Assembly (NCBI GenBank): GCA_002633005.1
Contig: NMRA01000990.1
Span: forward strand, 13,086-76,721
DNA length: 63,636 bases
Reading direction: 5' to 3'
Source of the DNA: Phoronis australis
Lineage: Eukaryota > Animalia > Phoronida
Part shown: piece after piece, positions 20,888 to 61,752 of the stretch
How the letters are laid out: every line of letters starts with the position of its first letter
Position numbering within the stretch: position 1 is the first letter of the stretch
The notes under the pieces: model-generated
What the model saw: only the letters and a program-made list of their open reading frames with translations
Database searches by the model: none
What the model was told of the DNA's origin: nothing
Program-made: the position numbers and the translations under genes

Positions 20888-20926
20888 ATGCTGGTCAGAA
20901 TGGACACAATGATCCAAGTAGACATG
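20888..20926 (+). CDS. Candidate start exon of the ankyrin/protease gene (MLVRMDTMIQVDM)
   Basis: In-frame ATGs ending in ATG|gtaagt (consensus donor, phase 0), 385 bp upstream of the next ankyrin-like exon. Confidence 0.4.
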
Positions 20927-21311: not shown

Positions 21312-21401
21312 GTTGAATCTGCTGTGCGCAGTGGTGATTACTCAACAGTAGTGAAATACGTAAACCGTGGTTGGGACGTCCACCAACCACTGGATGATGA
21401 C
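21312..21401 (+). CDS. Ankyrin/protease gene, N-cap ankyrin-like exon
   Basis: tttcag acceptor and gtaagt donor, 90 nt, phase 0/0. VESAVRSGDYSTVVKYVNRGWDVHQPLDDD fits A..G....V..L...G.DV. Confidence 0.65.
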
Positions 21402-33400: not shown

Positions 33401-35279
33401 AGCTTAATAAATATTTCTCAAAACAATTAAAATGATAGCAATGACGCTTGCTTGATTTTAATCAGGCCACATTTTTATTGCTCAAACGTGTATCGAGTTT
33501 TTAAATTTTAGTGAAATGAAGTACAGTTTTGACGTGACAGTGTACGTCTAATTATTGATTTCCAGATTTTGTTCTATTAATATATGGACTGGTGTACACG
33601 TGACGCATTGTACTACTGGGTGATTTTATATAAAGAATGGAATTTTAAATTTTTATTTAGATATTTTTCTAGTATTCAATTGTTTGACAGTGCAACATGT
33701 TATAATTTTTGTGGTGACTGCTATTGTTCTACCGCCCAATATTTTCCAATTGTACATATTATCTATCCGTATTTCTTTCTATATTTTGTCCAAGTGGCCG
33801 TGGGATCCAAATGGCAGTCGGCTACTTGAGACGCAACCTGAAATTGCGGCTTTTGTTCAAGTTGTTGAATTTTTGTATTCCTTGTTTGCTTGTCATCAAA
33901 TCAGCCGTGATTGTAGCGTTGCATGTTCTCTGAGACCATATATTTTTGACATTTCCCTCTTTACGCACCACTCTGAAGCGAAATGTTGAATAAAGTAAAT
34001 CAGCAGAAATCTCAAATTTTTAGTTACAATATAGAAAGTTGTATAAACGCCGAAACACCATTTTGAACGTCTGATTGTAAAAGGGTCAAACGAGAGTCAA
34101 AAAAAAAACAAATTGCAACACCTTTTATTTGGTTAGTCACGCTCTCTTTAATTAATTCCTTGCGATTATTAAATGCCCCTTTAAATGTATTCAAGAACTG
34201 ACAAATGTATCAATTTATCGCGTGTACACGTGAAAACTGTCTGGAAAAGCGCTCTTTTTAAAAGCAACGCTTCGCCAGGCCAGACTGCTGCCACGTCGTC
34301 TCAAGAATAGCAGAACAATTTGTGCTTGCGTCGAAATAGGAGACAAATGATTGATTGGATTTCTGAACAGCAATCTTGACAAGAAGAATGGTTTAGGTGA
34401 AATGTGTTTCAACGTGCGTTTAATTTGTAGAGAACTCTTTATTCTTTTCCTGAACGTTTTGCCTGCTTGGATTTTGTTGGATGCCATTTACAAGTTGAAA
34501 TGTGTTTAGTTCCGTGTGCCCGTGTTCCTGACCAGTAACAGACCCTTTACCAAGGATTGCCCTGCATTTTTTCCATAAAAAACTTCATACTTCAGTTGCG
34601 TTTTGATAACATCCTATGCCAATGGCCAATTTACCCTATATTGATTTCCTCTCTTCCTTCTATTTCTGTTAGTTCCTGACTTTAATTTGTTAGAAATTAT
34701 TTTGGACCTCAGGAAAAAAGTGAAACTGGACTTAACAAATTATTTTGACCATGTTTTTCAATTCATGCCTCCAGCAGAGATTGGTTTGGGGTAGACCTAG
34801 TAATTAAGGAAAAATGAGACGACCATGTAAGCTTTACCCATATAATTGCAGTTTTCATATACACTAACAATACTTTTGCCTTGATCTCTCGAAAAATTGA
34901 TCTCTTAAAATGATAAACTTTTAAGTTTAAATATCAAGGTCACGTTAATGACAATAACAGTGATAGCTTGTCTTAGCTACAACCAGTCGTAAGTCGGACT
35001 TTTATAAAAGTGTCCATATTTTTAAAGAACATGTCATATCTTTGCTCTGAGGATTATTACTGAAACTAACAAACGTTCTACATGAGCGACGTAACCTTGT
35101 TCTCTAAAAATGATGATCCATTCCAACGACAACTGATATATTACGTGGTAAGCAGAGGGTAGATTTAGTAATTTTGTGTGCAAATGTGTTATTTCAACGT
35201 TTCCTGTGGTGAGTAATTAAGATTCACGGTGAAGTTAATGATTGTGAAGTTTGCTATAACTTGTTTATTGTTTCTGCAG

Positions 35280-35375
35280 GACGACACAGCACTACACTAT
35301 GCAGCAGGGCTGGGACATACAGAGATGGCGCGTGTTTTGTGTGAAGCAGGCGCTAACGTCAACAAGCAAGGCGTG
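35280..35375 (+). CDS. Ankyrin-repeat exon
   Basis: ctgcag acceptor and gtaat donor; DDTALHYAAGLGHTEMARVLCEAGANVNKQGV. Confidence 0.9.
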
Positions 35376-35941
35376 GTAATAGAAACTACTTGAGACGATT
35401 TTATAATTAAGACAATGTTATCTTTATTACAAAGCTGTAGACTACCTGAAATTTAACTAAACATGTTGTGTGTAAATACACTTTTTATTTCTCAGGATTT
35501 CGACATGTATTTTTAATCTGTACCCGGTACATGCATCTTAAGAAACAGTGAGGTTTGAATTGTGTCAACAATATATTTGGCGACTTAACGTTGATATTTT
35601 TCTATTCTTAATGATAATCATCCATTCAACATTACAACTTTATATTAAACAGGAAGCCGTTAAACCGGTGTATAAACACAACATGGAGGGGTCACTGTGA
35701 AGTTATGGAGGCGCTCAGTAATTTCTGACAGTAGACGTCTACACCATGTTCTGTTCTTACTTCAACGTTTCAAAATCACCTGTAAAACTTGAGTGTTGAA
35801 ATCATTACAAGTATTGTAGCGTCTTAGAGGGGTCAGTAATGTTTCACTTATGTCACCTTACAAGTTCACTTTGCCCCGTGTATGTTAGTGTGCTCTAAAC
35901 GTTGATCGTCCATTCACACATCTCCATTATATATTACATAG

Positions 35942-36040
35942 GAGGGCTTGACACCGCTGCACTGTGCAGCATGGTGTGGTCATAAAGAGATAGTGAAGTG
36001 TCTTGTGGAACACAACGCTGCAGTGGATGTCCGTGATGAG
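35942..36040 (+). CDS. Ankyrin-repeat exon, tandem copy 1
   Basis: 99 nt, phase 0/0; EGLTPLHCAAWCGHKEIVKCLVEHNAAVDVRDE. Confidence 0.92.
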
Positions 36041-36598
36041 GTAATTAATGACACACAGGTTGTTTGGTTGAACTAGTTGTTTACACAAGAGATGATTAAA
36101 ACTATCTAGTAAAAAATTTTGTTGATATTTTTCACAATTTTATGTCTTTAAACAATGTCAAAATAAATGTCGTCTGCTTTCCAACAGCGAACTGCCAAAG
36201 CTTTACCTGAACATTCCAGTTGATCCATTATTGTTGTTTTATTTACCTATATATATTCTACATTTCGTCAAACAATAGTTTCCTTCAGACGATCTGGATC
36301 GCCTCATTTAGTTTCAGATTTATTTTCTACGTTATTTTGATCGTCCAACACTTTACAGCGCACAATTACTTGCTGTGTGTTACCGGCCTGTAACGAGACA
36401 GGGAACACTGAACACGCTCTGTTTTTTTGTTCTAAAACTCAACATTTCCCTGTTGAAATCATTACAAGTATTGTAGCGTCTTAGAGGGGTCAGTAATGTT
36501 TCATTTATGTCACCTTACAAGTTCACTTTGCCCCGTGTATGTTAATTAGCTCTAAACGTTGATTGTCCATTCACACATCTCCATTATATATTACATAG

Positions 36599-36697
36599 GT
36601 GGGCTGGACACCGCTGCACTGTGCAGCAGGGTGTGGTCATACACAGATAGTGAAGTGTCTTGTGGAACACAACGCTACACTGGATGTCCGTGATGAG
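36599..36697 (+). CDS. Ankyrin-repeat exon, tandem copy 2
   Basis: 99 nt, phase 0/0; VGWTPLHCAAGCGHTQIVKCLVEHNATLDVRDE. Confidence 0.92.
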
Positions 36698-37255
36698 GTA
36701 ATTAATGACACACAGGTTGTTTCGTTGAACTAGTTGTTTACACAAGAGATGATTAAAACTGTTGAAAAACAAATTTTGTTGATATTTTTCACAATTTTAT
36801 GTCTTTAAACAATGTCAAAATAAATGTCGTCTGCTTTCCAACAGACAACTGCCAAAGCTGCATCCAAATATTTCAGTTAATCCATTATTGTTGTTTTATT
36901 TACCTATATATATTCTACATTTCGTCAAACAATAGTTTCCTTCAGACGATCTGGATCGCCTCATTTAGTTTCAGATTTATTTTCTACGTTATTTTGATTG
37001 TCCAACACTTTACAGCGCACAATTACTTGCTGTGTGTTACCGGCCTGTAACGAGACAGGGGACACTGAACACGCTCTGTTGTTTTGTTCTTAAACTCAAC
37101 ATTTCCCTGTTGAAATCATTACAAGTATTGTAGCGTCTTAGAGAGGTCAGTAATGTGTCATTTATGTCACCTTACAAGTTCACTTTCCCCCGTGTATGTT
37201 AATTAGCTCTAAACGTTGATCGTCCATTCACACATCTCCAATATATTTTACATAG

Positions 37256-37354
37256 AGGGGCGTGACACCGCTGCACTGTGCAGCACTGAAGGGTCATACA
37301 CAGATAGTGAAGTGTCTTGTGGAACACAACGCTACAGTGGATGTCCGTACTCAG
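37256..37354 (+). CDS. Ankyrin-repeat exon, tandem copy 3
   Basis: 99 nt, phase 0/0; RGVTPLHCAALKGHTQIVKCLVEHNATVDVRTQ. Confidence 0.92.
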
Positions 37355-37886
37355 GTAATTAATGACACACAGGTTGATGAAACACAATACGTGATAAGGT
37401 TGAATTATTGGGTGTTTTAATTAAATAATCACAAATTGTAATTTTGTTTGTAAACGTTGAATTCATGGCACGTGTAGTGACGCGCACGTGACGTGACGTG
37501 CTCGTGACATTAAGTTATTAGAAACAGTTTTCACTTCACCTGGAGTTGTACATTGAGCAGTTGTTCTTTACTTGCATTTCCATAGCACTCACTAAATGAT
37601 CGTGGCTCTGTTGTAATATACATGTAAAACATCAAATTGTGATATTTAAAATCATCTTTTCAGTCGCGTGACTACAACAGATCAGCATTTAAGAAATTGC
37701 GCTCATTTTTGTCTGAGTTTAAATGTCAGTTGTAGTCGTGCTCTGTTGAGTCACCCACTTCATACAGTAAGTATGCAACTGATGGCGAAGTTCTGAAAGG
37801 CATTAAGCGTGACTCCCTGTTGATGCACCCACTTTGCTATGTATGATGCTGACTAGCATTCTATCATTTTTGTTCGTTTACTGTAG

Positions 37887-37988
37887 GATGGAGACACACC
37901 CTTACATCTTGCTTCCCAGAAAGGACAGGCAGCGGTCGTGGATCTGCTGGTCCATAAAGGCAGCTGCGACGTAACTGTCGTAAACAAG
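37887..37988 (+). CDS. Ankyrin-repeat exon
   Basis: ctgtag acceptor and gtatct donor; DGDTPLHLASQKGQAAVVDLLVHKGSCDVTVVNK. Confidence 0.9.
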
Positions 37989-40900
37989 GTATCTCAAGAG
38001 TGTTGTAGTCCAAGTTTAGTTAATGCTGCAATAAATGTGTTTTAAATGAATATTGATTTCGAGGAATTGTTCACTTATAATAAATATCTCATTAAAACTG
38101 ATCTACCTCTTTACTGGAGTTACATAGAGTCACTTCTTACATGCAAGTACCTTCCCAGAACACGCAGCGAAACCAAGGCTGCTTGTCTGATCGTACAATC
38201 GGTACACAAACTAAAAACAGACCAACCACGGAGGAAGGCGCCCAACACAGGCACACATTTTGATTTTCCTACAAGTACTTTTTAGTCAGGGTTTCTTTAA
38301 AAAGCGACTGTTTTAAAAACCAAATTTCAAAGTCGTGTAATTTCTTGGTTTGTTTGTAATGCAAATGCACTTCTGTGTAATAAGTTCCTGCCATGTTTTG
38401 TTTGATATATTCTGTGGTGGAGTAATGTTGGGCGTGAGTTAGTCAAAGTCCAGCCTTTTGAAAAGACAAGTGCGGTTTTCGCTGTTCCAGAAGTCTGCAT
38501 AAGTTAGACCCCAGAAAAAGCAGAGCGCTGTGTGACTAATTTGCGCACAGTGATCGTTTCTTATCCACTCTAAATCCAGGGTCTGTTTCAGATTCTTATA
38601 AAACGTGTATACATATGCGATCTGACTTGTTTCTGACTGTTGGTGATTTCAGTTGTCCGAAACACAACACCACGCTTTCTATATCACCCCATATTTTATT
38701 TTCGTTCAAATCACATCTTCGTGTTGTGTCAATCAGTTTTATCCGTTAGTTGCAGAAACTTGAGCTTGAGAATGTATTTCATCAGTTTGTTGAAAAGCTA
38801 ACACATTTTCTCATCGTTCTTATTTTTTCGTAGTGCCTGTTTGGCAAATTTTAATTGGTCTTCACTAAATGTGCGTGGGTGGCCACGTTATCAGAAATTA
38901 CCCATGTCAAACGTACCAGTCCAAATATCTCCTTTATGAAACAGCATAATGACAACAAAAATAAGTGATGTGGAACCTTATCAGAAAACGACAAAATTGG
39001 AGATTGAAAGAACTCGGCATGTGGACCATATTGTTCAGTTTTCTGAGCAGTAGTTAATAGATATTTTGTTCGATTATTTATCAATTCATCTGAGATATTG
39101 GAAATGCACTACAACTACAGAGTGCAAGTATCCCTAATCTGTTTCCATTTTTTGCTGTCCAAAGAACAATTCTAACATCGTTCCGAAAATACATTTCTGC
39201 CAGTATTAATTGATTGGAGAGACGCCTTTAGCTTTGACCTCATGTATACAACAACGAGATCCGTTGCACATGTATGTTACACTGTAGCTATTTGGTACAG
39301 TGTTTGTGAGACTGTGGAGCCTTTTAGAATGCATTACTCTGGTGAGTGGATCTTTTATATATAGGCAACTTCTTTTAACAACGTTTGACAGGACCATGGA
39401 AACGTGTGCATAAATCTTCTTAGACATTTGATAAATGTAAAGCGACGGACATTTAGCCTTAACAATAGGGTTTCTGACATGGCTTTGAAGCTGGAAACTA
39501 TAATTAATAGATGACGAAAAGACCCGACCCTTGAGCTCTGCTTTTGTGTGCTAGGTAAGCTAAAACATGGACAATTTATAGGAAACGACAAAACACAAAG
39601 GAACTGTTGCACCTCATGGAAAATGTGGGTACGCATTTGAGAAACTACAGCGACAACGACAGCAATAGTTGATCACGTTGAAATACATGTACGGTATATA
39701 AATATATCTGCGATCTATCCAACCTGTATCAATCTCAAGTCATGCTGCAGCAAACAACCAACACTGAGGCTGTGAAACCACGTTTAGCCTTGATAGGACT
39801 CGAAAAGATACTATATATGTATTATATGAATTAGACAAATCCCCAATGACAAGACTATTGATATAGTTTTACGCAAAACACCGATTCAAAGAATAATGTA
39901 ATTTCTTTTTGGAAAAAAAAGGTTGCGAAGACATCATAGGTGGACAAGGTTAAAAGTGCGTTGTGTCGTAGATTGGAATAAGAAAGTTTGTTAAACTTGA
40001 AGACCACTCTGCGTGAAGTGGATTTAGACGAGATACCTGATGACATAATTACAAAGGTACAGATTTCTTAATGATATTAATCTGACGATAATTTATTAAG
40101 TTCACCTCATGAGAGCATCTCATTTCGGGTACTACTACGACTCAAGGAAACAAACTCCTGATGCAACAATCGTTTTGGTAAAAAAAGTCGGCTGAACAAG
40201 CGATTCCACGGAAATCATAACACCCCAAAAAGCAAATGTTTGGACAAAAAATTTGATGTCTCCAGAAAAGATGAAAGGGGCATGATTTTCACCATTAGTT
40301 TTGTGTTTGAACAGGAAATAAACCAAACTAATAATTTTGACAAGTTTGTTGAAATTTCAACGATGTAGTGAGTAGTGCAATTCGTTGGTTTCAAATTTTG
40401 AGATTATCAGATCTTGGACCTAGCATCACTCTTCAGCAAGTTTAAAAAGAATGTTTTCTGCTGAGAATGGGGAAGTCTTAAAACTTTGTAAACGCGTAAA
40501 ACCAGGAACAATCGCCAATGGGAAATGTTTTGTAATAAAAATATTTAATCGCGTTACAATTTATGGTCTCAAATGTTTGACGCAATAGAATCTTCAAATC
40601 CTTTCGGTACTTAACCATTTCCTTTATTTTAAAAAATGTTATCTAATATTCAACATGTCCGCTTTTCTACATTAACGTGTGTTAGGGTTGAAATGTACTT
40701 TTATCGATGCCTTGGGTGCAACATTCAGTAATTCATTAGGCGTTGTCATTTGATTAGGTGATGAATATTTAGTTAACCAAGTACTGACCATAAAGGAAAA
40801 GGGCGTTATAAATTATTAGAAATTTTGATTACCTGTTTAAAAAGGATTGCATAAATCCCCATAGCTAAAGATTATATACCTTTTCCTTTACCCAAACACG

Positions 40901-41403
40901 CATTTTTAACACGGTAAATAGCCTTCCTTGAAGCATGAAGACACTTTGGATGCGTACCTAACAATTTCCATGAATAATGTATTTGTATCGGACGATGTTG
41001 GTCACTGCTGCTGGGTGGAGGTTGTTATTATGCAAGCTGACAGTAAACAACAGAAGTCTAAAGCTACTTCCAACCGTTTTCCACGGATGTTCAGGAATGC
41101 ACGGTATCTACGTGTATACATGTACGTTAGAGTTCAAAAATTGGTGAAAGACAATGTTTGAACAAAAATTAGAAGCATTTTTACCACGTGGTTGCCATGG
41201 TGACAACAAAGAGGGTTCAGAGTACCGTGACCTAAAGCTAGACGATTCCGCACCCCAGTTGGTTTATGCTGCCTTTTGATGTCATCTCAGTGGACTACAG
41301 TGAAAGATGTCCTGGACAAGTTGTCAGCAAGTTCATACCTCAGTTTGCTAATCCCATGGAGTACACCTCTCGAGTGGAACCCCATCTAACACGTGTATAA
41401 TGT

Positions 41404-41674
41404 GCAGATCTTAAAAGGCAAAAGAAAATTAAGGAGTGAAACTCAATACTCGGTGGCTGAAGACTTCAGCAAGAAGGTTCGTATCGCTAGATCAAAGTTA
41501 TGGCAGTTCTCAAGAGACAATAATTTTATAGAAGCCACAATAAAATTCGATAAGCTTTATAACAACAGGAAAATGTACCTGTATGACAATCATATAGACA
41601 AAGTTGTCTGCAACGAGGATAGATACATCTTCAGAGATAGTACGGATACAAATGAAGAGGACGACAGTCAATAG
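41404..41674 (+). pseudogene. C-terminal fragment of LINE ORF1
   Basis: KLRSETQYSVAEDFSKKVRIARSKL...ATIKFDKLY matches the L1-type ORF1 C-terminal pattern (S(I/V)xEDFS..R..R.L ... DKL); stop is 6 nt before ORF2. Confidence 0.7.
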
Positions 41675-41680
41675 CAAACA

Positions 41681-44600
41681 ATGACAAGAGAAATGAAAAT
41701 AGGATCATGGAACATAGGGGGGCTAGAAAGTAAGCTACGACAAAACAAAGGAGAAATTAAAAAAATAATTAGAAACTACGACCTCATAGGATTCATTGAA
41801 TCACACGCAAGAGCAGAGCATGAATTTGGCGATCTCTTAGAAAATTATTCCACGTTCACATCAGTACGAAACATACATAACGGCAAAGTATCTGGTGGAG
41901 TGACAGTAATGGTAAAGAACAATTTAGGAACCAAAATAACTCGCATCTGTGAGAATTTGGAAGACAGAGTATATTTGCATCTGAAAGATTTATTTGCTGG
42001 CTCAGACAAGCCAGATGTAATAATAGGTTTTATTTATCTCCCTCCCGAAGGGTCAGCATACTACAGCCACGACATTTCTGACTGCGGTGTTGATCGTCTC
42101 GAGGATGACTTTACCTGCTTAAAGAGTAATGGGAAATTTAACCACTCACGGGTTATTTTGACAGGTGACTTTAACTCAAGGACAGCTACACTCAGAGACT
42201 ACATCCCAGATGACGATATCACGCATATCAATGTCCTTGCCAATAGCGATTGTTGTTATGTTCAAAATAATTTTGAAAAACCAAGAAACAACCAAGATGC
42301 GAAATCTAATTACTTTGGCAAAGAACTTGCCAAATTTTGTGCAGTATATGGTACGCACATAGTTAACGGTAGATACCCCTCAGACAGAGAAGGAAACTAT
42401 TCGTTCGTCTCCACTCGAGGATGCAGCACTATTGACTATGTTATTGCCGAGGCATCTCTGTTCGAATATATTAATGACTTTGAAGTATTAAACTACGACC
42501 AGTCAGACCATTTCCCTATCATGTGTACTCTACGTTATCTAGAACATACGGAAGCTGATACAGACGGATCGAACACTAGTGTCAGAACAACCCCATTGCA
42601 CCGACTGAAGTGGCAGCCACACAAATCTTCAAGTTTTAAGGATAGACTGGGCAGCGTTGACACCACCGAGAAATTATCCCAAATATCTTCAGCCATCGAT
42701 ATGGATATTAACAAAGCAGTTAATTTAATAAATGAATTATTCCACGCTTGCGGCGCTGACATGAAAATAAGCAATAAACCCGCAGTGAACAGGCAGCAGC
42801 CAAGGTGGTTCGACAACGTTTGCGAGCAAAAGAAAATAGAAAAACATAATTTATTGAAACTTTTCAGATCCACAAAGTGTGTGGATACACTACGTAATTA
42901 TATTGATACGAAAAGTCAATTTAAGGAAACCTGTCGTGAAAAAAAGAAGAATTATAACGAACAAATGGAAAAGAAATTATGTGATTCAGTGAGAGATCCA
43001 AGAATATTCTGGGCAAACGTGAAGTCAATCATAAATCCGAACAATATTCAACAAGCGGATATTTCGTCGAAGGAATGGTATAACTATTTTGAAAAACTCT
43101 TGAACACTGAGCCTGTACGGGAAAACAGAGAATTCCTTAATAATTTGCTGGACGAAATGCGAGAGCACGACGAAAGCTGCAATGACTGTGCCAACACACC
43201 TGGTGATGAAATCCTGGTACAACTTAATAAAGAAATTGACATGTCCGAAATCAATCAGGAAATAAATAAACTTAAAAGCAACAAAACCCCTGGAGAAGAC
43301 GGTATTCCAAATGAACTCTTCAAAGCACTGACTGGTGACATCCTTGAAGTGTTATGCAAACTATTCAACAAGGTACTGGCGACAGGAAAATTCCCGGAGA
43401 ACTGGAGAAAGAGTATAATCGTTCCAATTTACAAGAAAGGAGACAAAAATAACCCAAATAATTACAGGGGAATTTCTTTAATTGATAGCATAAGCAAGCT
43501 ATTTACATCAATATTAAACAGAAGGCTGATTGAGTGGTCGGATGCAATGCAATGTATCCCTGAGGAACAAGCCGGATTTAGGGCGGGTTATTCGACCGTG
43601 GATAACATTTTTGTTCTACAAGCTTTGGCCCACATAAATTTATCAAAAAGAGGTGGAAAAATGTACTGTGCCTTTGTGGACTTTAGCAAGGCGTTTGACA
43701 GCCTAGAAACTACACGTCTGTTTTATTGTTTGTTAAAAAATAATCTCCACGGGAAAGTGTTCAATCTCCTGAGGAATATTTATGCTGAAGTGAAATCGTG
43801 CGTGAGAATACAGAGTCAAATCACACCCTATTTTGATTGTACGAGAGGTGTGAAACAAGGGTGTATACTGAGTCCTTGGTTATTCTCTGTTTTTGTTAGC
43901 GGACTGGTGTCAGAGGTCAAAGAAAATGGAGGACGAGGTATCAAGTGTGATGATTGTGAATTAAGTTCGTTATTGTTTGCGGACGATTTGGTGCTTGTGG
44001 CGGACACAGTGCCTGGTCTCCAGAGGAAATTAAATGTATTGCACAACTACTGTGTGGATTGGAGTCTTTGTGTTAATCTTGATAAGACAAATATTGTTGT
44101 CTTCAAGCGAGGTGGGACTCTGTCGGCACAGGAACGGTGGTTCTACAATAAGAAATCGGTAGAAACGAAATCTTATTACAAGTACCTTGGTGTGACATTT
44201 TCTTGCAGATTAAAATGGAATGAAAATTGTAGAATATCAGCTTTACAAGCTAGAAAAGCAATGAACATGTTAAAAGCATGTTTAACCAAAGTGAATTGTA
44301 AATCCCCGCATGTATGTTTTAAATTGTTTGATAGTATGGTAGCTCCTATATTGTTATATGGTGCTGAGATATGGGGTACAGTATATTCGAAAGACATAGA
44401 AAGTGTTCACAATGATTTCTGTAAATGGGTTGCTGGTGTCCCAAAGAAAACAAGTAACGTTATGGCCAGAGGAGAATGCGGCAGGCATTTATTATCTGTG
44501 AAATACTTGTGCAGACCAATAATCTACTGGACCAAAATTCTACAGATGAATAACCCCAGATACCCAAAGAAAAGTTACAGGATGCTGCGGGAAGACTGTG

Positions 44601-45166
44601 AAAAAGGACGAGCAAATTGGGCCAGTGCAGTTAAAGATATTTTGTTCAGATACGGGTTTGGGGAGGTATGGATAAGTGGACCGGGTAACTTTGATTTATT
44701 TATATCAGAATTTAAGCAAAGATTGTTGGATTGTGCTGCCCAAGAATGGAGGACATCAGTGCAGAGCTCTAGCAAGTGCTCATTTTACTCTATTATCAAA
44801 ACAGATTTATCTTGTGAAGAATATCTTTACAGTTTACCACCAACTCTACGTAGAATTTTAGCCAAATTCAGGTGCTCTGGACACCAACTGAAAATAGAAA
44901 CTGGTAGGCACCATGACATTCCAAAGGAAGATAGACTTTGCGAAATTTGCAACCGTTCAGAAATTGAAGACGAAATACACTTATTACTTAACTGCCCCGT
45001 ATTTAACGACATTAGAAAAAAATTTTTACCAGAAATATCCCGACAGCATACAGACATCGAAAACGTCAAATACTTATTCAAAACAAACTCTGGAAATCTT
45101 TTGAAAAGACTATCCTTATTTATATTAAAGGCTTATGGTATTAGACAGGAAACTCTAACATTGTAA
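41681..45166 (+). CDS. LINE ORF2: APE endonuclease + reverse transcriptase + C-terminal CCHC-like zinc motif (1161 aa)
   Basis: APE motifs SWNIGGL, TGDFN, TIDY, SDHFP. RT motifs PGEDGIP, YRGISL, QAGFR, DFSKAFD, GVKQGCILSP, FADD, YKYLG. C-terminal CEIC...EDEIHLLLNC. Confidence 0.97.
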   Translation: MTREMKIGSWNIGGLESKLRQNKGEIKKIIRNYDLIGFIESHARAEHEFGDLLENYSTFTSVRNIHNGKVSGGVTVMVKNNLGTKITRICENLEDRVYLHLKDLFAGSDKPDVIIGFIYLPPEGSAYYSHDISDCGVDRLEDDFTCLKSNGKFNHSRVILTGDFNSRTATLRDYIPDDDITHINVLANSDCCYVQNNFEKPRNNQDAKSNYFGKELAKFCAVYGTHIVNGRYPSDREGNYSFVSTRGCSTIDYVIAEASLFEYINDFEVLNYDQSDHFPIMCTLRYLEHTEADTDGSNTSVRTTPLHRLKWQPHKSSSFKDRLGSVDTTEKLSQISSAIDMDINKAVNLINELFHACGADMKISNKPAVNRQQPRWFDNVCEQKKIEKHNLLKLFRSTKCVDTLRNYIDTKSQFKETCREKKKNYNEQMEKKLCDSVRDPRIFWANVKSIINPNNIQQADISSKEWYNYFEKLLNTEPVRENREFLNNLLDEMREHDESCNDCANTPGDEILVQLNKEIDMSEINQEINKLKSNKTPGEDGIPNELFKALTGDILEVLCKLFNKVLATGKFPENWRKSIIVPIYKKGDKNNPNNYRGISLIDSISKLFTSILNRRLIEWSDAMQCIPEEQAGFRAGYSTVDNIFVLQALAHINLSKRGGKMYCAFVDFSKAFDSLETTRLFYCLLKNNLHGKVFNLLRNIYAEVKSCVRIQSQITPYFDCTRGVKQGCILSPWLFSVFVSGLVSEVKENGGRGIKCDDCELSSLLFADDLVLVADTVPGLQRKLNVLHNYCVDWSLCVNLDKTNIVVFKRGGTLSAQERWFYNKKSVETKSYYKYLGVTFSCRLKWNENCRISALQARKAMNMLKACLTKVNCKSPHVCFKLFDSMVAPILLYGAEIWGTVYSKDIESVHNDFCKWVAGVPKKTSNVMARGECGRHLLSVKYLCRPIIYWTKILQMNNPRYPKKSYRMLREDCEKGRANWASAVKDILFRYGFGEVWISGPGNFDLFISEFKQRLLDCAAQEWRTSVQSSSKCSFYSIIKTDLSCEEYLYSLPPTLRRILAKFRCSGHQLKIETGRHHDIPKEDRLCEICNRSEIEDEIHLLLNCPVFNDIRKKFLPEISRQHTDIENVKYLFKTNSGNLLKRLSLFILKAYGIRQETLTL

Positions 45167-45290
45167 CGTGTAAATATGTATATATGTATTGAATACCCGG
45201 ACATGAAATAGCCACCTATACCAAATGTTGTAATGTAATATGTACAAATGAGCTTAGCTCCAAGTGCAATAAACAACCTCTCTCTCTCTC

Positions 45291-45635: not shown

Positions 45636-45734
45636 AAAGGCGAAACAGTTTATGATGTTTGTGGAAGATATTGTAGCGTGTTTTTTGACAAGACCGCCGC
45701 CGAAAATATTAAAACCTTAAAGGGGTTCCTTGAG
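45636..45734 (+). CDS. Ankyrin/protease gene, C-cap ankyrin-like exon
   Basis: tttcag acceptor and gtacag donor, 99 nt, phase 0/0; KGETVYDVCGRYCSVFFDKTAAENIKTLKGFLE. Confidence 0.75.
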
Positions 45735-46004: not shown

Positions 46005-46233
46005 ATTCAAATGAAGCAAAGACAGGAAAACCAACGTGCGAGTTCTGCTGAGGGTGCTGAAGCCAAAGACAGGTCCAGTGCTGACCCGCACTTTAGCCTT
46101 GGAAGATCTCTTGCTCATTACTTCGAGTCCTCCGGGGCAACAGTGCCCAAAGGGGATGTAGATATAAATATACAAGCACACCAAGGAGACAAAAATGAAC
46201 TAGAAATTCTCGATGTTGACGTCAGACCATCAG
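46005..46233 (+). CDS. Ankyrin/protease gene, linker exon
   Basis: atag|ATT acceptor and CAG|gtatgt donor; open in phase 0 (IQMKQRQENQRASS...DVDVRPS), ends in phase 1. Confidence 0.7.
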
Positions 46234-47596: not shown

Positions 47597-47939
47597 ATTG
47601 GTTTCAATTACATCATCTCCTCGCCACTTCCTGACTCGCTTTTGTCTCACATGGTAAAGCAAGCCCACTTGGGATACTGGAAAAGGGTATTTGACAATTC
47701 TTTTCTTTCAGACTACTTTCCTATACAAAGTCCCAGAAAAGAGCCAACCCAGTGTAGTTTCGGTCCGGCGTTTGATTGGAACAAAGAGACGATGTCGGCG
47801 CATTTCCCCACATCTTTGTCAACAGCCTTTTCATCAGTAGCTCTGATTGTTGGACAAACCGGCACAGGTTCAGGTTTCCGTGTTGGCCCTGACTACGTCA
47901 TGACCAATAAGCACGTTGCTGAACAACTGGGCGATGATC
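47597..47939 (+). CDS. FAM111-like trypsin-fold serine protease, catalytic-His segment (5' exon boundary unresolved)
   Basis: SSVALIVGQTGTGSGFRVGPDYVMTNKHV matches the Trypsin_2/FAM111 GxGFxVGxxYxxTxxHV motif; donor C|gtaagt at 47940. An in-frame TAA lies at 47594. Confidence 0.7.
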
Positions 47940-49499
47940 GTAAGTGTCACGTGTACCATTATTGATGTACTGTTGGCTGAATAACGCTTTGTCAAACCTA
48001 CTACTATTTTAAGTCTAGGAACCTAGTTTAAGTTAAACACGTGCTTGATATAGTACGAAAATGCCGGGAATTTCGTAAGAGCAGAAGCAAACTTTACGAA
48101 CTCACTACCTTCAATACATTACCTGCTTGACGTGACTAAAACGCGGATAAATTCCCAAAAGAAAGTTTAAATGCTTTCCCTGAACATGCTGTTACTGTTT
48201 CTGAAAAACTTTGCATGTTCTTCAAATTATCAATAAATGTTTTATTGTTTTTGATATGAAACAAGAACACCCTACTCAGTCATTTTATTTTCAAGACAAA
48301 AAGTGAAATTGTCTGTTCCTTAACGTCGCAACAAACTTGCTATTTCTGTAACAAACAACTTTTTGTCTTCACCTTTAACATTTACGAAATTGATCCCATC
48401 TAAGGCTGGTCTAGAATAACTGACACTTCGTGATTGCCTCAAATCAGGGATATTACTTGTCATGGCGGGTTATTTTCAGATGTATGGCCGTGATACAGAC
48501 AGTCTTATTTCATCTAATAACAATAACATGATGTTCCGTCAGGACAGTAACTCGGTATTAAACAGGTACCTTCAAAACGGCTATACAACCCGAAAAAACT
48601 CGAACTCTGGCATTTAAACCAGGGACCCCGGGAATGGACAGGAAACCTGTACCAAAACACTAATCCCGCACTTTCTGTTAAACATTGTTTGGTGAAAAAT
48701 AAATCTTCCAGGTTTAAATAGTCGCTGTGGTATGTTGTTTTGCTTAATATATGTGAAGTTAAGACAAATATGGCGGATTGGCATTCTATGTTTTTTCTGT
48801 TGATGAGGCTGTGGTGCGATCTTTTGCGTCGGCTTTCGTCACCATGAAATATTGCGTCACTATTGGCCAGTTTCTTTCCCCCCGCCCCCCAATTCTTCAA
48901 TCAATTGTTCTTCTTCCACAAGATTGCTTACATATCGCAGCTAATTAATCAACAATGACACTCGAAAGTCGAAATAATATTTTTGTTTTTCAGTTTGAGA
49001 ATATTTTTGTAGAAACTAATGAATAATCTGAAATTAACTAAATATTCAACGAGATAACAACGTGTAGTGAGTAAAGATTATGTTAAAATTGGCCCATAGG
49101 CAAGTTGCACTAGTTTTATCAATAAAATCAAATAAAGTCAAAATAAGATAAGTTACGTTTTACCATTGACAATTTTAACAAACGAATGCAGGGAATAATT
49201 AAAAATACGCAGGACTGTTAAGAATGTCAGTTCTGGCAGCAGGGCATGGTTTACGTCGGAAGTTCACTGACACAGATTTGAGGGTTAATAGCACTACATT
49301 CCAAATTTGGTAGTGTCTTAAAACGCTATCAGTGCGTGACTGAATTGGCAGGTGAGCTTACACTCCGGCAGATAGAAGAGTACATGTATAAGAAGTTGTT
49401 GTACCAGCTGTACGGACCAATCCCGTTGGCAATGCACGGTTACATACATAGAGAGAGAAAGACATTACTCTCACGAGATACAGTACAAACGAGACTGTT

Positions 49500-51218: not shown

Positions 51219-51461
51219 NNNNNNNNNNNNNNNNNNNNNNNNNNNNNNNNNNNNNNNNNNNNNNNNNNNNNNNNNNNNNNNNNNNNNNNNNNNNNNNNNN
51301 NNNNNNNNNNNNNNNNNNNNNNNNNNNNNNNNNNNNNNNNNNNNNNNNNNNNNNNNNNNNNNNNNNNNNNNNNNNNNNNNNNNNNNNNNNNNNNNNNNNN
51401 NNNNNNNNNNNNNNNNNNNNNNNNNNNNNNNNNNNNNNNNNNNNNNNNNNNNNNNNNNNNN
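51219..51461. other. Assembly gap (243 N)
   Basis: Run of N. Confidence 1.
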
Positions 51462-51547
51462 NCAGATTTAGAAGCAGGTGTTAGTCATGAAATTAGCTGC
51501 TCCCGCCACGGTGGCCGGTGTCGTGGCGTCGCCGGGAAGTCTGATCC

Positions 51548-56604: not shown

Positions 56605-58732
56605 CTATGATCCCCAAGGCTGTTCCACGCGCCAACGTTTCCCCGACCCTTCCCACAACTGTATGTCGAGAGTCAGTCTGTTTGAGTCTATTATCTAATT
56701 TGTTGCAAATTGAAGTTAAAGATCCTACGACTGAGGATTGCGACCAATTGTATGATTCATCATGTGTCTTTTTCCGAAACTTTTAAGTTTGTTTTTTTGT
56801 TACCGTTCCGCCGCACATAGATATACTCATGCACTGAAGCACACTAAAACGAATAAATTAACTTGTTGGGGGCATTGAAACTGGAAAACATAGAGACGGA
56901 GGAACAGCGAGTTGGTGGGAACTTAGGCACGGGGCAATATAGCGAGCTTCAAACAGCGATCCGACCCCCGTAAAATCCATGATGCCAAGCATTAGAGGCC
57001 ATTCGTACTGCAGCGTATGGATACGCCAAGCTTCATTCATGCGGGTGTCTGGTCGATTCAAACGGACACAGTTGTTCGCGTTGTACTCTTATATTGGGTG
57101 ACAATATTTGGTACTCCGGTAAGCTTTTTGAAACCACAAATTGTAGTTGGAAAAACACAATTTGATTTCATTGGAATTATTTTTAATATCTGGTGGCTGT
57201 GTAGTGTTTAATATCTTGGTGACTGTTTAAGTAACTTATGCAATCACAGCTCCAAGTTTAAGTGTTAGATCATGTTAGATACAAAAATATAAATTAATTG
57301 CCAATTTTTTGTGAAATGTTATAAAGGTAAATTTCTTTCAATTTGTTATTGCTTATCCGTATGGTGCATCCAGGTGTAGATTAACATTTTTCTGAAGTCC
57401 ACTGCGTGCGTTTATCAACGACAAGCATATTCCACCCAGCTTAAAAAATGGGGGCTCGAATGTGGACCGTTTACTAAGACTTACGGGATACGTTTAGATG
57501 AATGGATTGTGCATTTGCCGAATTTTGGTAGTCCCTGCCTTTTTAGTCGACTTTTTTCTCGTTTTCTACCTTTTTCGAGACTGGCCTTTTTAATTCTCTA
57601 GAAATCGTTGGTCTTCATTTGCAAGGGCCAGAATTACATCGTGAAACCATATGATTGTGGGCGGCGGAACCAAATCTTGAATGGGGGGCACAACTATCGG
57701 CAAAGCAAGACGAGACAAACTCAGTGGAGAAAAATGAAGGCTAAAGTAAAGACACTTTTTTTAGCATATCTCATGTCAATTGTTTCTCAATATTAGGACA
57801 ATTTTACTTTTTGAACAAATCAGGGCCCCTGTTCAACCTACACCCATGTCCTTCAACCATGTTAACACAATCTTTTACAACCAATGGCAACAATTGTTCC
57901 ACGTTGCTGTTGTGACCATATGGAAAGGTTAAGGCATCTGATTAATTTACAAGCAGGAAGTCGTCACCAGGAACAAATCAGATGTTTTGTCCAGCCTTTG
58001 TTGTAGAACAAAGATGGCGGACCGTAGTTGTGTTTACACGTCACTGCGTCCTCATTGGATGGAATTATTAGCTTGATTGACATGTCGGAACTATCCATTG
58101 TTTAACTACATGTAATTACTGAAAATGGCAGATAAACAAATGTCATACTTGTTAATACCTCTATTTGAATGCTTGCTATTAGAATGAGTGTATTAAGATT
58201 GCTATTGGCATTGAGCTTTGCATAACTCATAACTAATATAGCCTATTATATTGGCGTTACTTTGTAATCATTAACGATGATATAATTGATATTCTTTTCA
58301 CCATAATGTGTCATTACCAAATTAAATGTATTTTTATGTTTTCATTATCTTGGTTATTATTGTTGTTGTTTGTATAAATATTACTGTTATTATTGTTACA
58401 AGGCCTCAGTTACGGTTGTTGTCATCATTGTTGTTATCACTAGTGTCACCACTGCTTACTGCCGTGGATATTATTGTTATTATAACAGTTAAGCTAAGAA
58501 GATGGTAACCCATTTGGCTATGAATGAAAAATTCAAAAACTATTAAATTGTACTTAATGAATTATTAGACCACTTGAGCAACTTACGGAGCTCTTGTGTT
58601 GATTTGCCCAAGTAGAGTATACCATAATTTCAATTTGTCGTTAAAATATCCTCGCCGGTGCTTCTACAATTTTTGGCACATTGTTCTAGTTTTAATTCAT
58701 CTTGGATTAATTCATTTTTATTTTATACCCAG

Positions 58733-58992
58733 TGCCACTATGACATCGTTACAGTCTACGGTGCCATGGCAGACAATAGCATTGCAAGCTATGTGAAGAC
58801 TCTAGTCGCTACTGTCGTCGTGACAGCTCTTTTTAACTCATTGGTGCCAATATTTGGCTTCCTAACATTTGGGTCGGCTGTGCACAAAGAAATCATAGAC
58901 TCATATCCGCCAACACCAGAGGTCGTCCTTGCTTACTTACTGATGGCTTTGAAGTGCTCGACTGCCTTTCCTCTCGTGTTCTTTGTACTAAG
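58733..58992 (+). CDS. SLC38A7-like sodium-coupled neutral amino-acid transporter exon
   Basis: cccag|CHYDIVTVYGAM...IFGFLTFGSAVHKEIIDSYP...AFPLVFFVLR|gt matches the SLC38A7 pattern CHVS..GFLTFG.AV..D...SYP..SYP. Confidence 0.88.
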
Positions 58993-59053
58993 GTACAGTA
59001 CAGTATTAATATGCAACCATATGGGGCTGGTGTGATATGTGTCGTATAAACCA

Positions 59054-61360
59054 ATGTTACAAAAGCGATGTGTTCAATTCCTTAAGTAGTTTGACGAAAA
59101 GTCGCGAGATTGCATTAGAGCAAAGCAAGATCTCTAGTTTTTCAACTTTCAATCTAACAACTAAGAAAATAACTGATTCTGGTTGAACTGTTAAGTATCC
59201 ATTAATGAAAAGGTACTGCGGTTTCTTGTGCAAGTTGCGTGACTCGTGGTCCAAGGCCATGTGGTATTTTTCATGAAAAGCAACTTTCTGTGTTAAGGCT
59301 TAAAAGCATTCAAACAGAAATTTGGTCTTACGCTTCTCAAAAAATTTGAAAAATATGTAAATCTCATTTGACCAAAAATGCAATAGACCCATAACTGCTA
59401 GTTACGGAGATAATTTCTTGATTTTTTGTAGACTGTGATGCGCTCATAGTTACAAGGTTAAATATTCCTAGCAATTGTTAAGTGAGAGCGTAAGATCAAA
59501 TTTCTGCCCTAAAAGGACACCAAAGGCGGTTTTGCCCTATTAACAGATACTAAAAGGCTTTCCCAACCAGTTCTCTGAAACAACTTATTGCTCTGTAACC
59601 TCGACAGCAATAAAAAGTTTGGTTGAAATTTTGAAACTACGCTTTAGCGAATTACATGGCAACTGTGCGAGAAGGACTGCTAATGTGTCAGATAGGGACT
59701 ATGAGTTTTTAGTTTATTTCTGCCTTTGTCTTTCAAGATTGGTGCCAATGAGTCATTAACTGGTGACGGAAGAAGAATTGGTTGAGATAATCAAAACAGG
59801 GTTTAAAGTCCTTTTTAAATGCTTGAGTCACTTTCATGAAGCGAATTCTTGTCCCCTGTAGTGCAGAGGGGAATTCAATTTTCGCAATTATAAATACCAC
59901 TAGAAAGAACCTGGCGGCTCGGCAGCATTGCAAGAAATACTACAGTGAATTTTTCAAACTGACGTGTTCTCCAAGTGACGTCATTGTTTATATGCATGAC
60001 GCAGCATGTTCTGAACAATCAGCGAGTTGTAACGTAAATCCAAAAATAGGTTTAGCAAAGTTACGGTAGATTACTAAATACATTCAACATGGGAATTTGT
60101 CATCCAAGCTGCTAGATCGACCAAGCTAGCAAAGAGTTCTTAGTACTGTTATCATCGTAGTTCTATTGCCATTACTGTTCTTGTCGTTTTCATTGTTTTT
60201 TNATGTTACAAAAGCGTTGTGTTCAATTCCTTAAGTATTTTGCGAGTTTGACGAAAAGTCGCGAGATTGCGTTAGAGCAAAGCAAGATCTCTAGTTTTTC
60301 AACTTTCAATTCAACAACTAAGAAAATAACTGATTCTGGTAGAACTGTTAAGAATCCATTAATGAAAAGGTACGGCGGTGTCTTATGCAAGTTGCGTGAC
60401 TCGTGGTCCAAGGCCATGTGGTATTTTTCATGAAAAGCAACTTTCGCTGTTAAGGCTTAAAAGCATTCAAACAGAAATTTGGTGTTACGCTTCTCAAAAA
60501 ATTTGAAAAATATGTAAATCTCATTTGACCAAAATTGCAATAGACCCATAACTGCTAGTTACGGATATAATTTCTTGATTTTTTTGTAGACTGTGATGCG
60601 CTCAAAGTTACAAGGTTAAATATTCCCAGCAATTGTTAAGTGAGAGCGGAAGATCAAATTTCTGCCTTAAAAGGACACCAAAGGCGGTTTTGCCCTATTA
60701 ACAGATACTAAAAGGCTTTCCCATCCAGTTCTCTGAAACGACTTATTGCTCTGTAACCTCGACAGCAATAAAAAGTTTGGTTGAAATTTTGAAACTACGC
60801 TTTAGCGAATTACACGGCAACTGCGCGAAAAGGACTGCTAATGTGTCAGATAGGGGCTATGAGTTTTTAGTTTATTTCTGCCTTTGTCTTTCAAGATTTG
60901 CGCCAATGAGTCATTAACTGGTGACGGAAGAAGAATTGGTTGAGATAATCAAAACAGGGTTTTAAATCCTTTTTAAATGCTTGAGTCACTTTCATGAAGC
61001 GAATTCTTGTCCCCTGCAGTGCAGAGGGGAATTCAATTTTCGCAATTACAAATGCCACTAGAAAGAACCTGGCGGCTCGGCAGCATTGCAAGAAATACTA
61101 CTGTGAATTTTCAAACTGACGTGTTCTCCAAGTGACGTCATCGTGTATATGCATGATGAAACATGTTCTGAACAATCAGCGAGTTGTAACGTAAATCCAA
61201 AAATAGGTTTAGCAAAGTTAAGGTAGATTACTAAATACATTCAACATGGGAATTTGTCATCCAAGCTGCTAGATCGACCAAGCTAGCAAAGAGTTCTTAG
61301 TACTGTTTTCATCGTAGTTCTATTGCCATTACTGTTCTTGTCGTTTTCATTGTTTTTTTA
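59054..61360. repeat. ~1.15-kb direct duplication of intron sequence across the N at 60202 (probable uncollapsed haplotypes)
   Basis: 59054-60201 is approximately equal to 60203-61360 with scattered SNPs and indels. Confidence 0.9.
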
Positions 61361-61361
61361 G

Positions 61362-61561
61362 AAATGGGCTGCAAGATCTATGGACCACCTGTCGGAAATT
61401 ATCTGAAGAAGAAGTAGTCCAGCACGAGAAAAAGCACCGCCTTGTGATCGGCAGTGGAGCCTTCTTCTCTATTCTGTTACTGTACGTTGCCATCCCAGAC
61501 GTAGTAGGCGGCATGGCACTCAGTGGTGGGGTAACCATAATTACAACCTGTATACTTCCAG
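61362..61561 (+). CDS. SLC38A7-like exon
   Basis: Phase-2 acceptor matches the previous exon; NGLQDLW...EKKHRLVIG...LYVAIPDVVGGMALSGG...ILPG. Confidence 0.88.
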
Positions 61562-61752
61562 GTAGGCACATATTTAAACCAGCATTTGCAGTAGGATCGT
61601 GTATATTCGACTATTACAGTACACAATTCTTGCAATACCTCCGCGGCTTTAGTGAGACTTTCTGGTTAGGTTAAAGTTCGATTCCTCAAACTCGATTTAC
61701 TCAACTCATTGTTTGCCATAAGGTGGTACATTTTTGCTATTTCTTCTTTCAG

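Follow-up and report, generated by a model that had tools for sequence, protein, structure and literature searches.

It is still an open question by what means invertebrates, which lack antibodies, generate varied recognition repertoires, and the repeat-shuffling sensors that have been studied are fungal and algal, with NTPase switches. According to the accessible text of PMC4986451 and PMC13449251, fungal ankyrin NLRs of the Podospora Pa_3_8560 type carry a NACHT or NB-ARC domain and C-terminal repeats that are near-identical, vary in number and evolve in concert, with positive selection on the inner helix and hairpin of the binding face (PMC4986451). Gain, loss and swapping of these repeats by recombination is argued in the available part of PMC13449251, and PMC3341825, in the part at hand, argues likewise for algal repeat exons. 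The brown-algal receptors, candidate immune receptors themselves, encode each repeat in a separate exon, shuffle these exons inside a locus as well as from locus to locus, and are under diversifying selection; their repeats are LRR or TPR, their LRR exons are in phase 2 and their effector is Roc-COR or NB-ARC.

Two further systems bear on the comparison. Designed ankyrin libraries (ANK-N5C, PMC4308713, accessible sections) are synthetic and combine a fixed scaffold and capping repeats with randomised positions 2, 3, 5, 10, 13 and 33, which the crystal structure shows to form one binding surface. FAM111A-type Trypsin_2 proteases, in the available text of PMC9798293, have their trypsin-like domain at the C-terminus and no evident signal peptide; FAM111A acts as a restriction factor against DNA viruses, and marine invertebrates have FAM111 members without UBL domains. 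NLRs with highly conserved repeats also occur in animals, as the accessible part of PMC13449251 states, so the regime itself is not new to animals. In the open-licence literature, covered mostly as titles and abstract openings, neither a hypervariable animal ankyrin array with one repeat per exon nor an ankyrin-protease sensor turned up.

Here we describe an animal ankyrin cassette family, seen in DNA and RNA, from a stretch of 63,636 nucleotides of Phoronis australis DNA (the window; assembly GCA_002633005.1, contig NMRA01000990.1, positions 13,086 to 76,721, forward strand). The array in this window is made of one-repeat exon cassettes from a large transcribed family whose binding-face codons are much more variable than its silent sites. 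We consider it probable that it gives an intracellular sensor of non-self its variable recognition end, with a trypsin-like protease predicted behind it. The array comprises:

35794 to 37376, plus strand: tandem array of 657-bp exon+intron units, about 2.4 units with three exons (no N within 27792-50568)
35942 to 36040, plus strand: cassette ankyrin exon 1 (unit comparison, Pfam Ank)
36599 to 36697, plus strand: cassette ankyrin exon 2 (unit comparison, Pfam Ank), the reference for the family variant table
37256 to 37354, plus strand: cassette ankyrin exon 3 (unit comparison, Pfam Ank)

The cassette exons are 99 nt each, in phase 0, bordered by AG and GT and spaced 657 bp apart. Each encodes one repeat and scores above the Pfam Ank cut-off (E 6e-11 to 1e-9); all five ankyrin exons tested against PF00023 reach 35.9-42.4 bits, where the cut-off is 21.1. 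Copies 1 and 2 differ at 7 bases, 2 and 3 at 13, 1 and 3 at 14, and every changed codon alters the residue. The two complete cassette introns (558 nt each) are separated by 27 substitutions and zero gaps. An earlier note on this DNA had proposed three 99-nt phase-0 exons in 657-bp units, had given these same counts and residue changes and had estimated by hand an intron divergence of about 5%; coordinates, splice borders and Pfam matches bear out the structure, our recount agrees with the differences, and the intron value comes to 27/558, or 4.8%. Over 99 residues in total, the repeats are 86-93% identical in DNA and 73-79% in protein (7 to 9 of 33 residues differ); the yardstick for repeats of high internal conservation in the available text of PMC4986451 is ~85% alike over ~100 residues. 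No inverted or dead cassette was seen within the window. Each cassette intron also holds an interspersed repeat (36213-36337, 36870-36994) with RNA reads on both strands, whose minus strand has hammerhead-like core letters by eye and no Rfam match; an Rfam scan of 35200-38200 returned zero matches.

The earlier note treated the array by itself. Its exons are real, but they sit within a larger predicted gene, and the flanking ankyrin and protease-like exons had been missed. A path of ten exons, picked by hand, runs from 20924 to at least 47939 with canonical splice sites, matching phases and 381 codons without a stop. Apart from the cassettes, its exons and the features lying among them are:

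20924 to 20926, plus strand: candidate start codon (ATG) closing an upstream exon and followed by GTAAGT, from sequence only, with fitting phase
21312 to 21401, plus strand: candidate N-terminal capping repeat exon, 90 nt, phase 0 (splice-site scan)
35280 to 35375, plus strand: first, non-cassette ankyrin exon, 96 nt (Pfam Ank E 4.5e-9; RNA joints to cassette-type exons)
37887 to 37988, plus strand: last, non-cassette ankyrin exon, 102 nt (Pfam Ank E 7e-9; RNA joint from a cassette exon)
38030 to 38063, plus strand: likely intronic poly(A) signal AATAAA at 38030 and transcript end at 38063 (read-start pile-up)
41675 to 45166, plus strand: LINE ORF2 with endonuclease and reverse transcriptase, a stop-free frame of 1163 codons located in one of the predicted gene's introns
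45636 to 45734, plus strand: candidate C-terminal capping repeat exon, 99 nt, phase 0 (splice phase; X5 contigs)
46005 to 46233, plus strand: candidate linker exon, 229 nt, phase 0 to 1 (open frame, phase fit)
47712 to 47939, plus strand: candidate protease exon, coding for the first part of a trypsin-like domain and carrying the catalytic-His motif GSGF...TNKHV (weak sequence comparisons)

The N-terminal capping candidate is followed by a 13.9-kb intron, and its link to the ankyrin exons is predicted; Pfam gave zero matches on either capping candidate (21312-21401 and 45636-45734). Family RNA shows a similar but diverged DVDQEL-type end before the first ankyrin exon (loose ends), and three X5 contigs of relatives run on from 37988 into capping-exon-like sequence, also as a loose end. 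Among relatives, the capping-exon end ahead of the first ankyrin exon (reads before 35285) also looks variable, with a loose-end agreement of 0.62-0.86, and would extend the variable surface. Protein searches returned zero homologues for the linker exon and zero relatives for cassette 2, blank searches being weak evidence. The LINE extends over 41390-45166 in sense orientation to the predicted gene, with a (CT)n run at 45278; a target-site duplication was looked for and no convincing one was found. Read starts pile up at 38063, 28 nt past AATAAA, in all three raw RNA runs (7 of depth 19, 5 of 16 and 15 of 56). Use of this intronic poly(A) site would likely yield an ankyrin-only protein ending 18 residues past exon 37887-37988.

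The protease call combines four weak, consistent comparisons over one motif. The exon matches Pfam Trypsin_2 (PF13365) at E 0.016 and 16.4 bits, below the cut-off of 27.6; it is 48% alike to the Trypsin_2 protein P0004 in the representative protein search; tblastn of the two domains of P0004 leads back to it within the window (E 1e-4 and 2e-5); and solved serine proteases give weak matches (E 0.02-0.8) with the same His motif. Seven of the eight representative matches were dropped, being low-complexity proteins or Fn3-like ones inflated by repeats. An Ntox25 match below threshold (E 5e-4) was set aside, three other comparisons favouring the trypsin His motif. The ordinary protein search gave zero relatives, again weak as evidence, and the single-sequence fold has a pLDDT of 52 and no secondary structure. 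An exon with the catalytic Asp or Ser was not found in any of the 76 downstream plus-strand frames of at least 38 codons; an open stretch near 48480-48584 does not qualify as the protease exon that follows, since in the required phase it runs into a stop after four codons. Judged by splice phase, the ankyrin exons are rather likely to be linked to a trypsin-like protease, and such a sensor-protease fusion, if true, would be a simple new output for repeat receptors.

Set beside the described systems, the locus combines features of several. As in the brown-algal receptors, each repeat occupies one symmetric exon, here of 99 nt and ankyrin type and in phase 0, unlike the algal LRR and TPR repeats and the phase-2 LRR exons. 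It differs from the fungal NLRs, as far as the accessible text describes them, in several ways: the Phoronis repeats are N-terminal, each is encoded by a separate exon duplicated together with its intron, the partner domain is predicted to be a protease, and an NTPase was not found. Scans of the model exons and of 96 of the 114 plus-strand open frames gave no match to NACHT, NB-ARC or the Roc-COR tandem, though the assembly may lack the gene's 3' end. With FAM111A it shares the predicted C-terminal trypsin-like domain and the lack of an evident signal peptide, whereas the Phoronis exon has the His motif only and the available text of PMC9798293 mentions no ankyrin array for FAM111A; FAM111 proteins were not among the matches of protein searches with the protease exon. 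The Phoronis gene would work like the fungal and brown-algal repeat-shuffling sensors and, on the sequence present, is not an NLR or ROCO member.

We then turn to sequencing reads: eight runs of one species, four of DNA from one sample and four RNA-type from two other studies, the RNA runs having been chosen by species label and their samples differing from those of the DNA runs. Three raw RNA runs, each sampled to about one fifth, yielded 1561, 1411 and 3097 reads on 35150-38100. Nearly all array reads are of one strand, which is the gene sense under the usual library type, and most are 85-99% alike; those at least 99% alike to the array region number 8/1561, 18/1411 and 33/3097. On exon 2 alone, no RNA read matches at 99% (0/1018 and 0/414).

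That last result, together with a protease that ends after its His motif, a long LINE within an intron and an intron (35376-35941) heavily covered by sense reads in which read-through stops after five codons, favours a reading of this copy as a broken or truncated member, at most a cassette store, its selection signal inherited from working relatives. Against it, all ten exons lack a stop, a frameshift or a broken splice site, missing exons could lie at the assembly breaks, and the RNA and DNA runs come from different samples. Three such breaks (50569, 51219-51462 and 53502) lie downstream of the protease exon, so either the assembly or a genuine truncation in the animal may have cut this copy short. 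We regard its being a broken member as unlikely, if a reading to be taken seriously; the family-level result is untouched by it. Sense RNA depth in intron 35376-35941 is 15-240 in three runs, vs mostly 0-50 in the cassette introns outside the repeat element; this intron, where read-through meets the stop, is possibly retained or slowly spliced.

At the family level, the cassettes are members of a large transcribed family, seen in both DNA and RNA, whose extent was out of sight for the earlier note. Onto exon 2 we placed 1018 and 414 RNA reads, 42 X5 contigs and 155 DNA contigs. The DNA contigs show the same variation, and many of them share the window's intron end ahead of exon 2. Cassette and variation alike are therefore genomic, which excludes RNA editing as the origin of the pattern. 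Among the 15 of 85 RNA joints listed, we find the first exon joined to a cassette, a cassette to a cassette of the same type (back 99), a type 3 cassette to a type 2 cassette (back 756) and a cassette to the last exon. The simplest reading is that of alleles or paralogs with other cassette numbers and orders, among relatives; alleles and paralogs give the same picture, and alternative splicing or back-splicing at one locus gives the same joints. Exon-skipping joints are also present among RNA reads that are mostly 85-99% alike and may derive from paralogs. In one frequent junction variant of the family, the normally fixed hairpin glycine is replaced (E-C-P before TPLH; 17 and 20 X8 reads). A subfamily of more distantly related cassettes has the 5' half in common and differs in the 3' half.

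The same diversifying cassette family could have another driver than pathogens: allorecognition, gamete or symbiont recognition, or conflict with selfish elements. Our analysis names no ligand, the closest studied fungal cases govern allorecognition (PMC13449251, accessible part), and variant frequencies differ between the RNA samples X8 and X6 (60/570 vs 0/223; 81/847 vs 2/351). These differences may, however, be differences of expression, and the predicted exons have no signal peptide or membrane helix evident by eye, which fits a cytosolic sensor. We judge such a driver distinctly unlikely, and an immune role of the ankyrin cassette family seems fairly probable.

To locate the changes on the ankyrin fold, we use a register in which codons 33, 1, 3, 8, 11, 12 and 31 are ankyrin positions 2, 3, 5, 10, 13, 14 and 33. 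Position 14 is among the randomised positions of the Binz DARPin consensus set. The binding face was mapped through the library of PMC4308713 (accessible text), and the evidence for selection consists of counting tests on the window and the family reads.

Between copies 2 and 3, codons 1, 3, 11, 12, 31 and 33 differ at 10 of 13.8 non-silent sites and the introns at 27 of 580 (Fisher P 2e-10), about 15x the intron rate; with each codon counted once, five of the six binding-face codons are changed (P 2e-4 at the raw intron rate). Over all three copies, 12 of 18 minimum changes fall in 6 of the 33 codons (P about 1e-5); for the codons that PMC4308713 randomises, the count is 9 of 18 (P 0.002). 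The comparison of copies 1 and 2 is weak by itself, with a non-silent vs intron P of 0.09 overall and 0.035 at the six codons. The remaining codons of copies 2 and 3 differ at 3/60.5 non-silent sites, which is the intron rate, and the codons outside the binding face diverge at 0.05-0.08, again the intron rate and not lower. Codon 31, which is randomised in designed libraries, is invariant in the window copies and shows no variability in the family reads.

The absence of silent changes is a different matter. Zero over ~24 silent sites per exon is unsurprising, since it is expected at the intron rate of 4.7-5.4% with a P of 0.27-0.33; given 18 minimum changes, zero silent has a P of 0.006, or 0.044 when one possible silent path in codon 11 is counted. 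The real signal of the cassettes is the excess of residue changes at binding-face codons, not the missing silent changes. In the earlier note the count of synonymous changes was right and the weight laid on it overstated. Its claim that 10 of the 13 changes between copies 2 and 3 hit the binding surface is correct for codons 1, 3, 11, 12 and 33, and its reading of the terminal DE/DE/TQ as binding positions stands for codon 33, which is randomised, but not for codon 32 (D/D/T), which is position 1 and fixed in the consensus given in the available text of PMC4308713. Its diversifying selection on the binding face, together with a turnover of exon-intron units, is backed by the window statistics and by the family reads in DNA and RNA, while unequal crossover as the mechanism of unit turnover is still what we infer.

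The family reads extend this result. Among the 40 of 55 exon 2 family variants listed, 36 count as non-silent when set in the exon-2 codon; the other 4 are silent and occur at 5-12% of RNA reads. Variants were classed base by base, reads are weighted by expression and the 85% filter trims the family. The four silent variants contradict, for the family, the proposal of diversification only at the amino-acid level. At the first and second positions of the six binding-face codons, heterozygosity is 0.39 (X8), 0.40 (X6) and 0.38 (X1, DNA), or 0.35, 0.38 and 0.33, respectively, with the codon set of PMC4308713; at 16 four-fold sites it is 0.03, 0.04 and 0.025 among the variants listed. Binding-face codons of the exon-2-like family are thus about tenfold more variable than silent sites in two RNA runs and one DNA run. 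Were eight further X8 variants all silent, the count test would vanish (12/44) and the frequency test would hold (0.08-0.14 vs 0.39); were 15 further variants all silent at 8%, four-fold heterozygosity would be 0.16-0.18, still less than half of the binding-face value. Codon 8 (position 10) does not vary between the window copies but belongs to the most variable codons of the family, and the crystal-backed library of PMC4308713 (accessible text) places position 10 on the binding surface. Indels among the listed family variants pair to net zero. The counting tests on window and family reads point to positive selection on the concave binding face, as PMC4986451 describes in its available part for fungal repeats, and we hold diversifying selection on the ankyrin binding face to be highly likely.

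Neutral turnover would have duplication and conversion homogenise the units while changes gather where the ankyrin fold tolerates them. It accords with the silent changes, whose absence is expected at the intron rate (P about 0.3), with scaffold codons that change at that same rate, and with the clustering of intron differences (7 in 15 nt, P 0.001). Such clustering suggests short conversion tracts, so multi-base codon changes may arrive by one conversion step and not by several selected steps. Tolerance, however, caps the rate at neutral, and the binding-face codons exceed the introns about 15x between copies 2 and 3 and the family's four-fold sites about 10x, while silent sites in the adjoining codons 2, 4-6, 9, 10 and 13 are invariant among the variants listed; neutral turnover is therefore very improbable. 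That the three copies are an assembly artefact, alleles or paralogs set end to end, is hardly credible: several duplicated window segments do meet at a single N, the best DNA run contains only 0.51 of sampled words and no placed contig spans two units, but 27792-50568 has zero N, the copies stand in exact 657-bp register with distinct differences, and RNA of relatives joins cassette to cassette.

For the preferred reading, in which the array is the recognition end of a non-self sensor, we propose the following mechanism. Phase-0 exon-intron units would be gained, lost and swapped through unequal crossover and short gene conversion: as each repeat is a phase-0 exon in a near-identical intron, misaligned recombination adds, drops or swaps a whole repeat with the frame intact. 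Unit exchange would keep scaffold, silent sites and introns alike, and selection would retain new residues at ankyrin positions 2, 3, 5, 10, 13 and 14; since binding-face residues persist far above the neutral rate, selection for new or rare specificities is needed. Drawing on the parallel with fungal NLRs and with FAM111A, an antiviral protease, our best guess is that the target would be a cytosolic foreign protein. Its binding would switch on or aim the protease, and the intronic poly(A) site would supply a protease-free form. More tentatively, and as a possibility rather than an expectation, the family may amount to a germline 'DARPin library', in which ankyrin cassettes are reshuffled within and between genes to give individual sets of binders, each wired to a target-fired intracellular protease, with alternative poly(A) sites and splicing adding binder-only forms. 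The Phoronis cassettes vary nearly the same ankyrin positions that protein engineers randomise: positions 2, 3, 5, 10 and 13 are shared with the designed libraries as described in the accessible text of PMC4308713, as are the fixed scaffold and the capping repeats (candidates here), whereas in Phoronis position 33 is fixed and positions 14 and 1 vary. As the cassettes are small and modular, cassette swapping with ligand screening would be a direct test.

Elsewhere in the window, single N bases at 863, 11402, 50569, 53502 and 60202 stand at or beside duplicated segments. Two of these segments, 59054-60201 and 60203-61358, are 96% alike, and duplicated segments around a single N are probably allelic overlaps at contig joins. 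An amino-acid transporter exon (Pfam Aa_trans, E 6.5e-9) and what is likely another, hydrophobic exon occupy 58628-59032 and 61318-61671. Finally, a 27-nt tandem repeat of 11.5 copies occupies 2277-2586, with one frame open as a 9-residue repeat.
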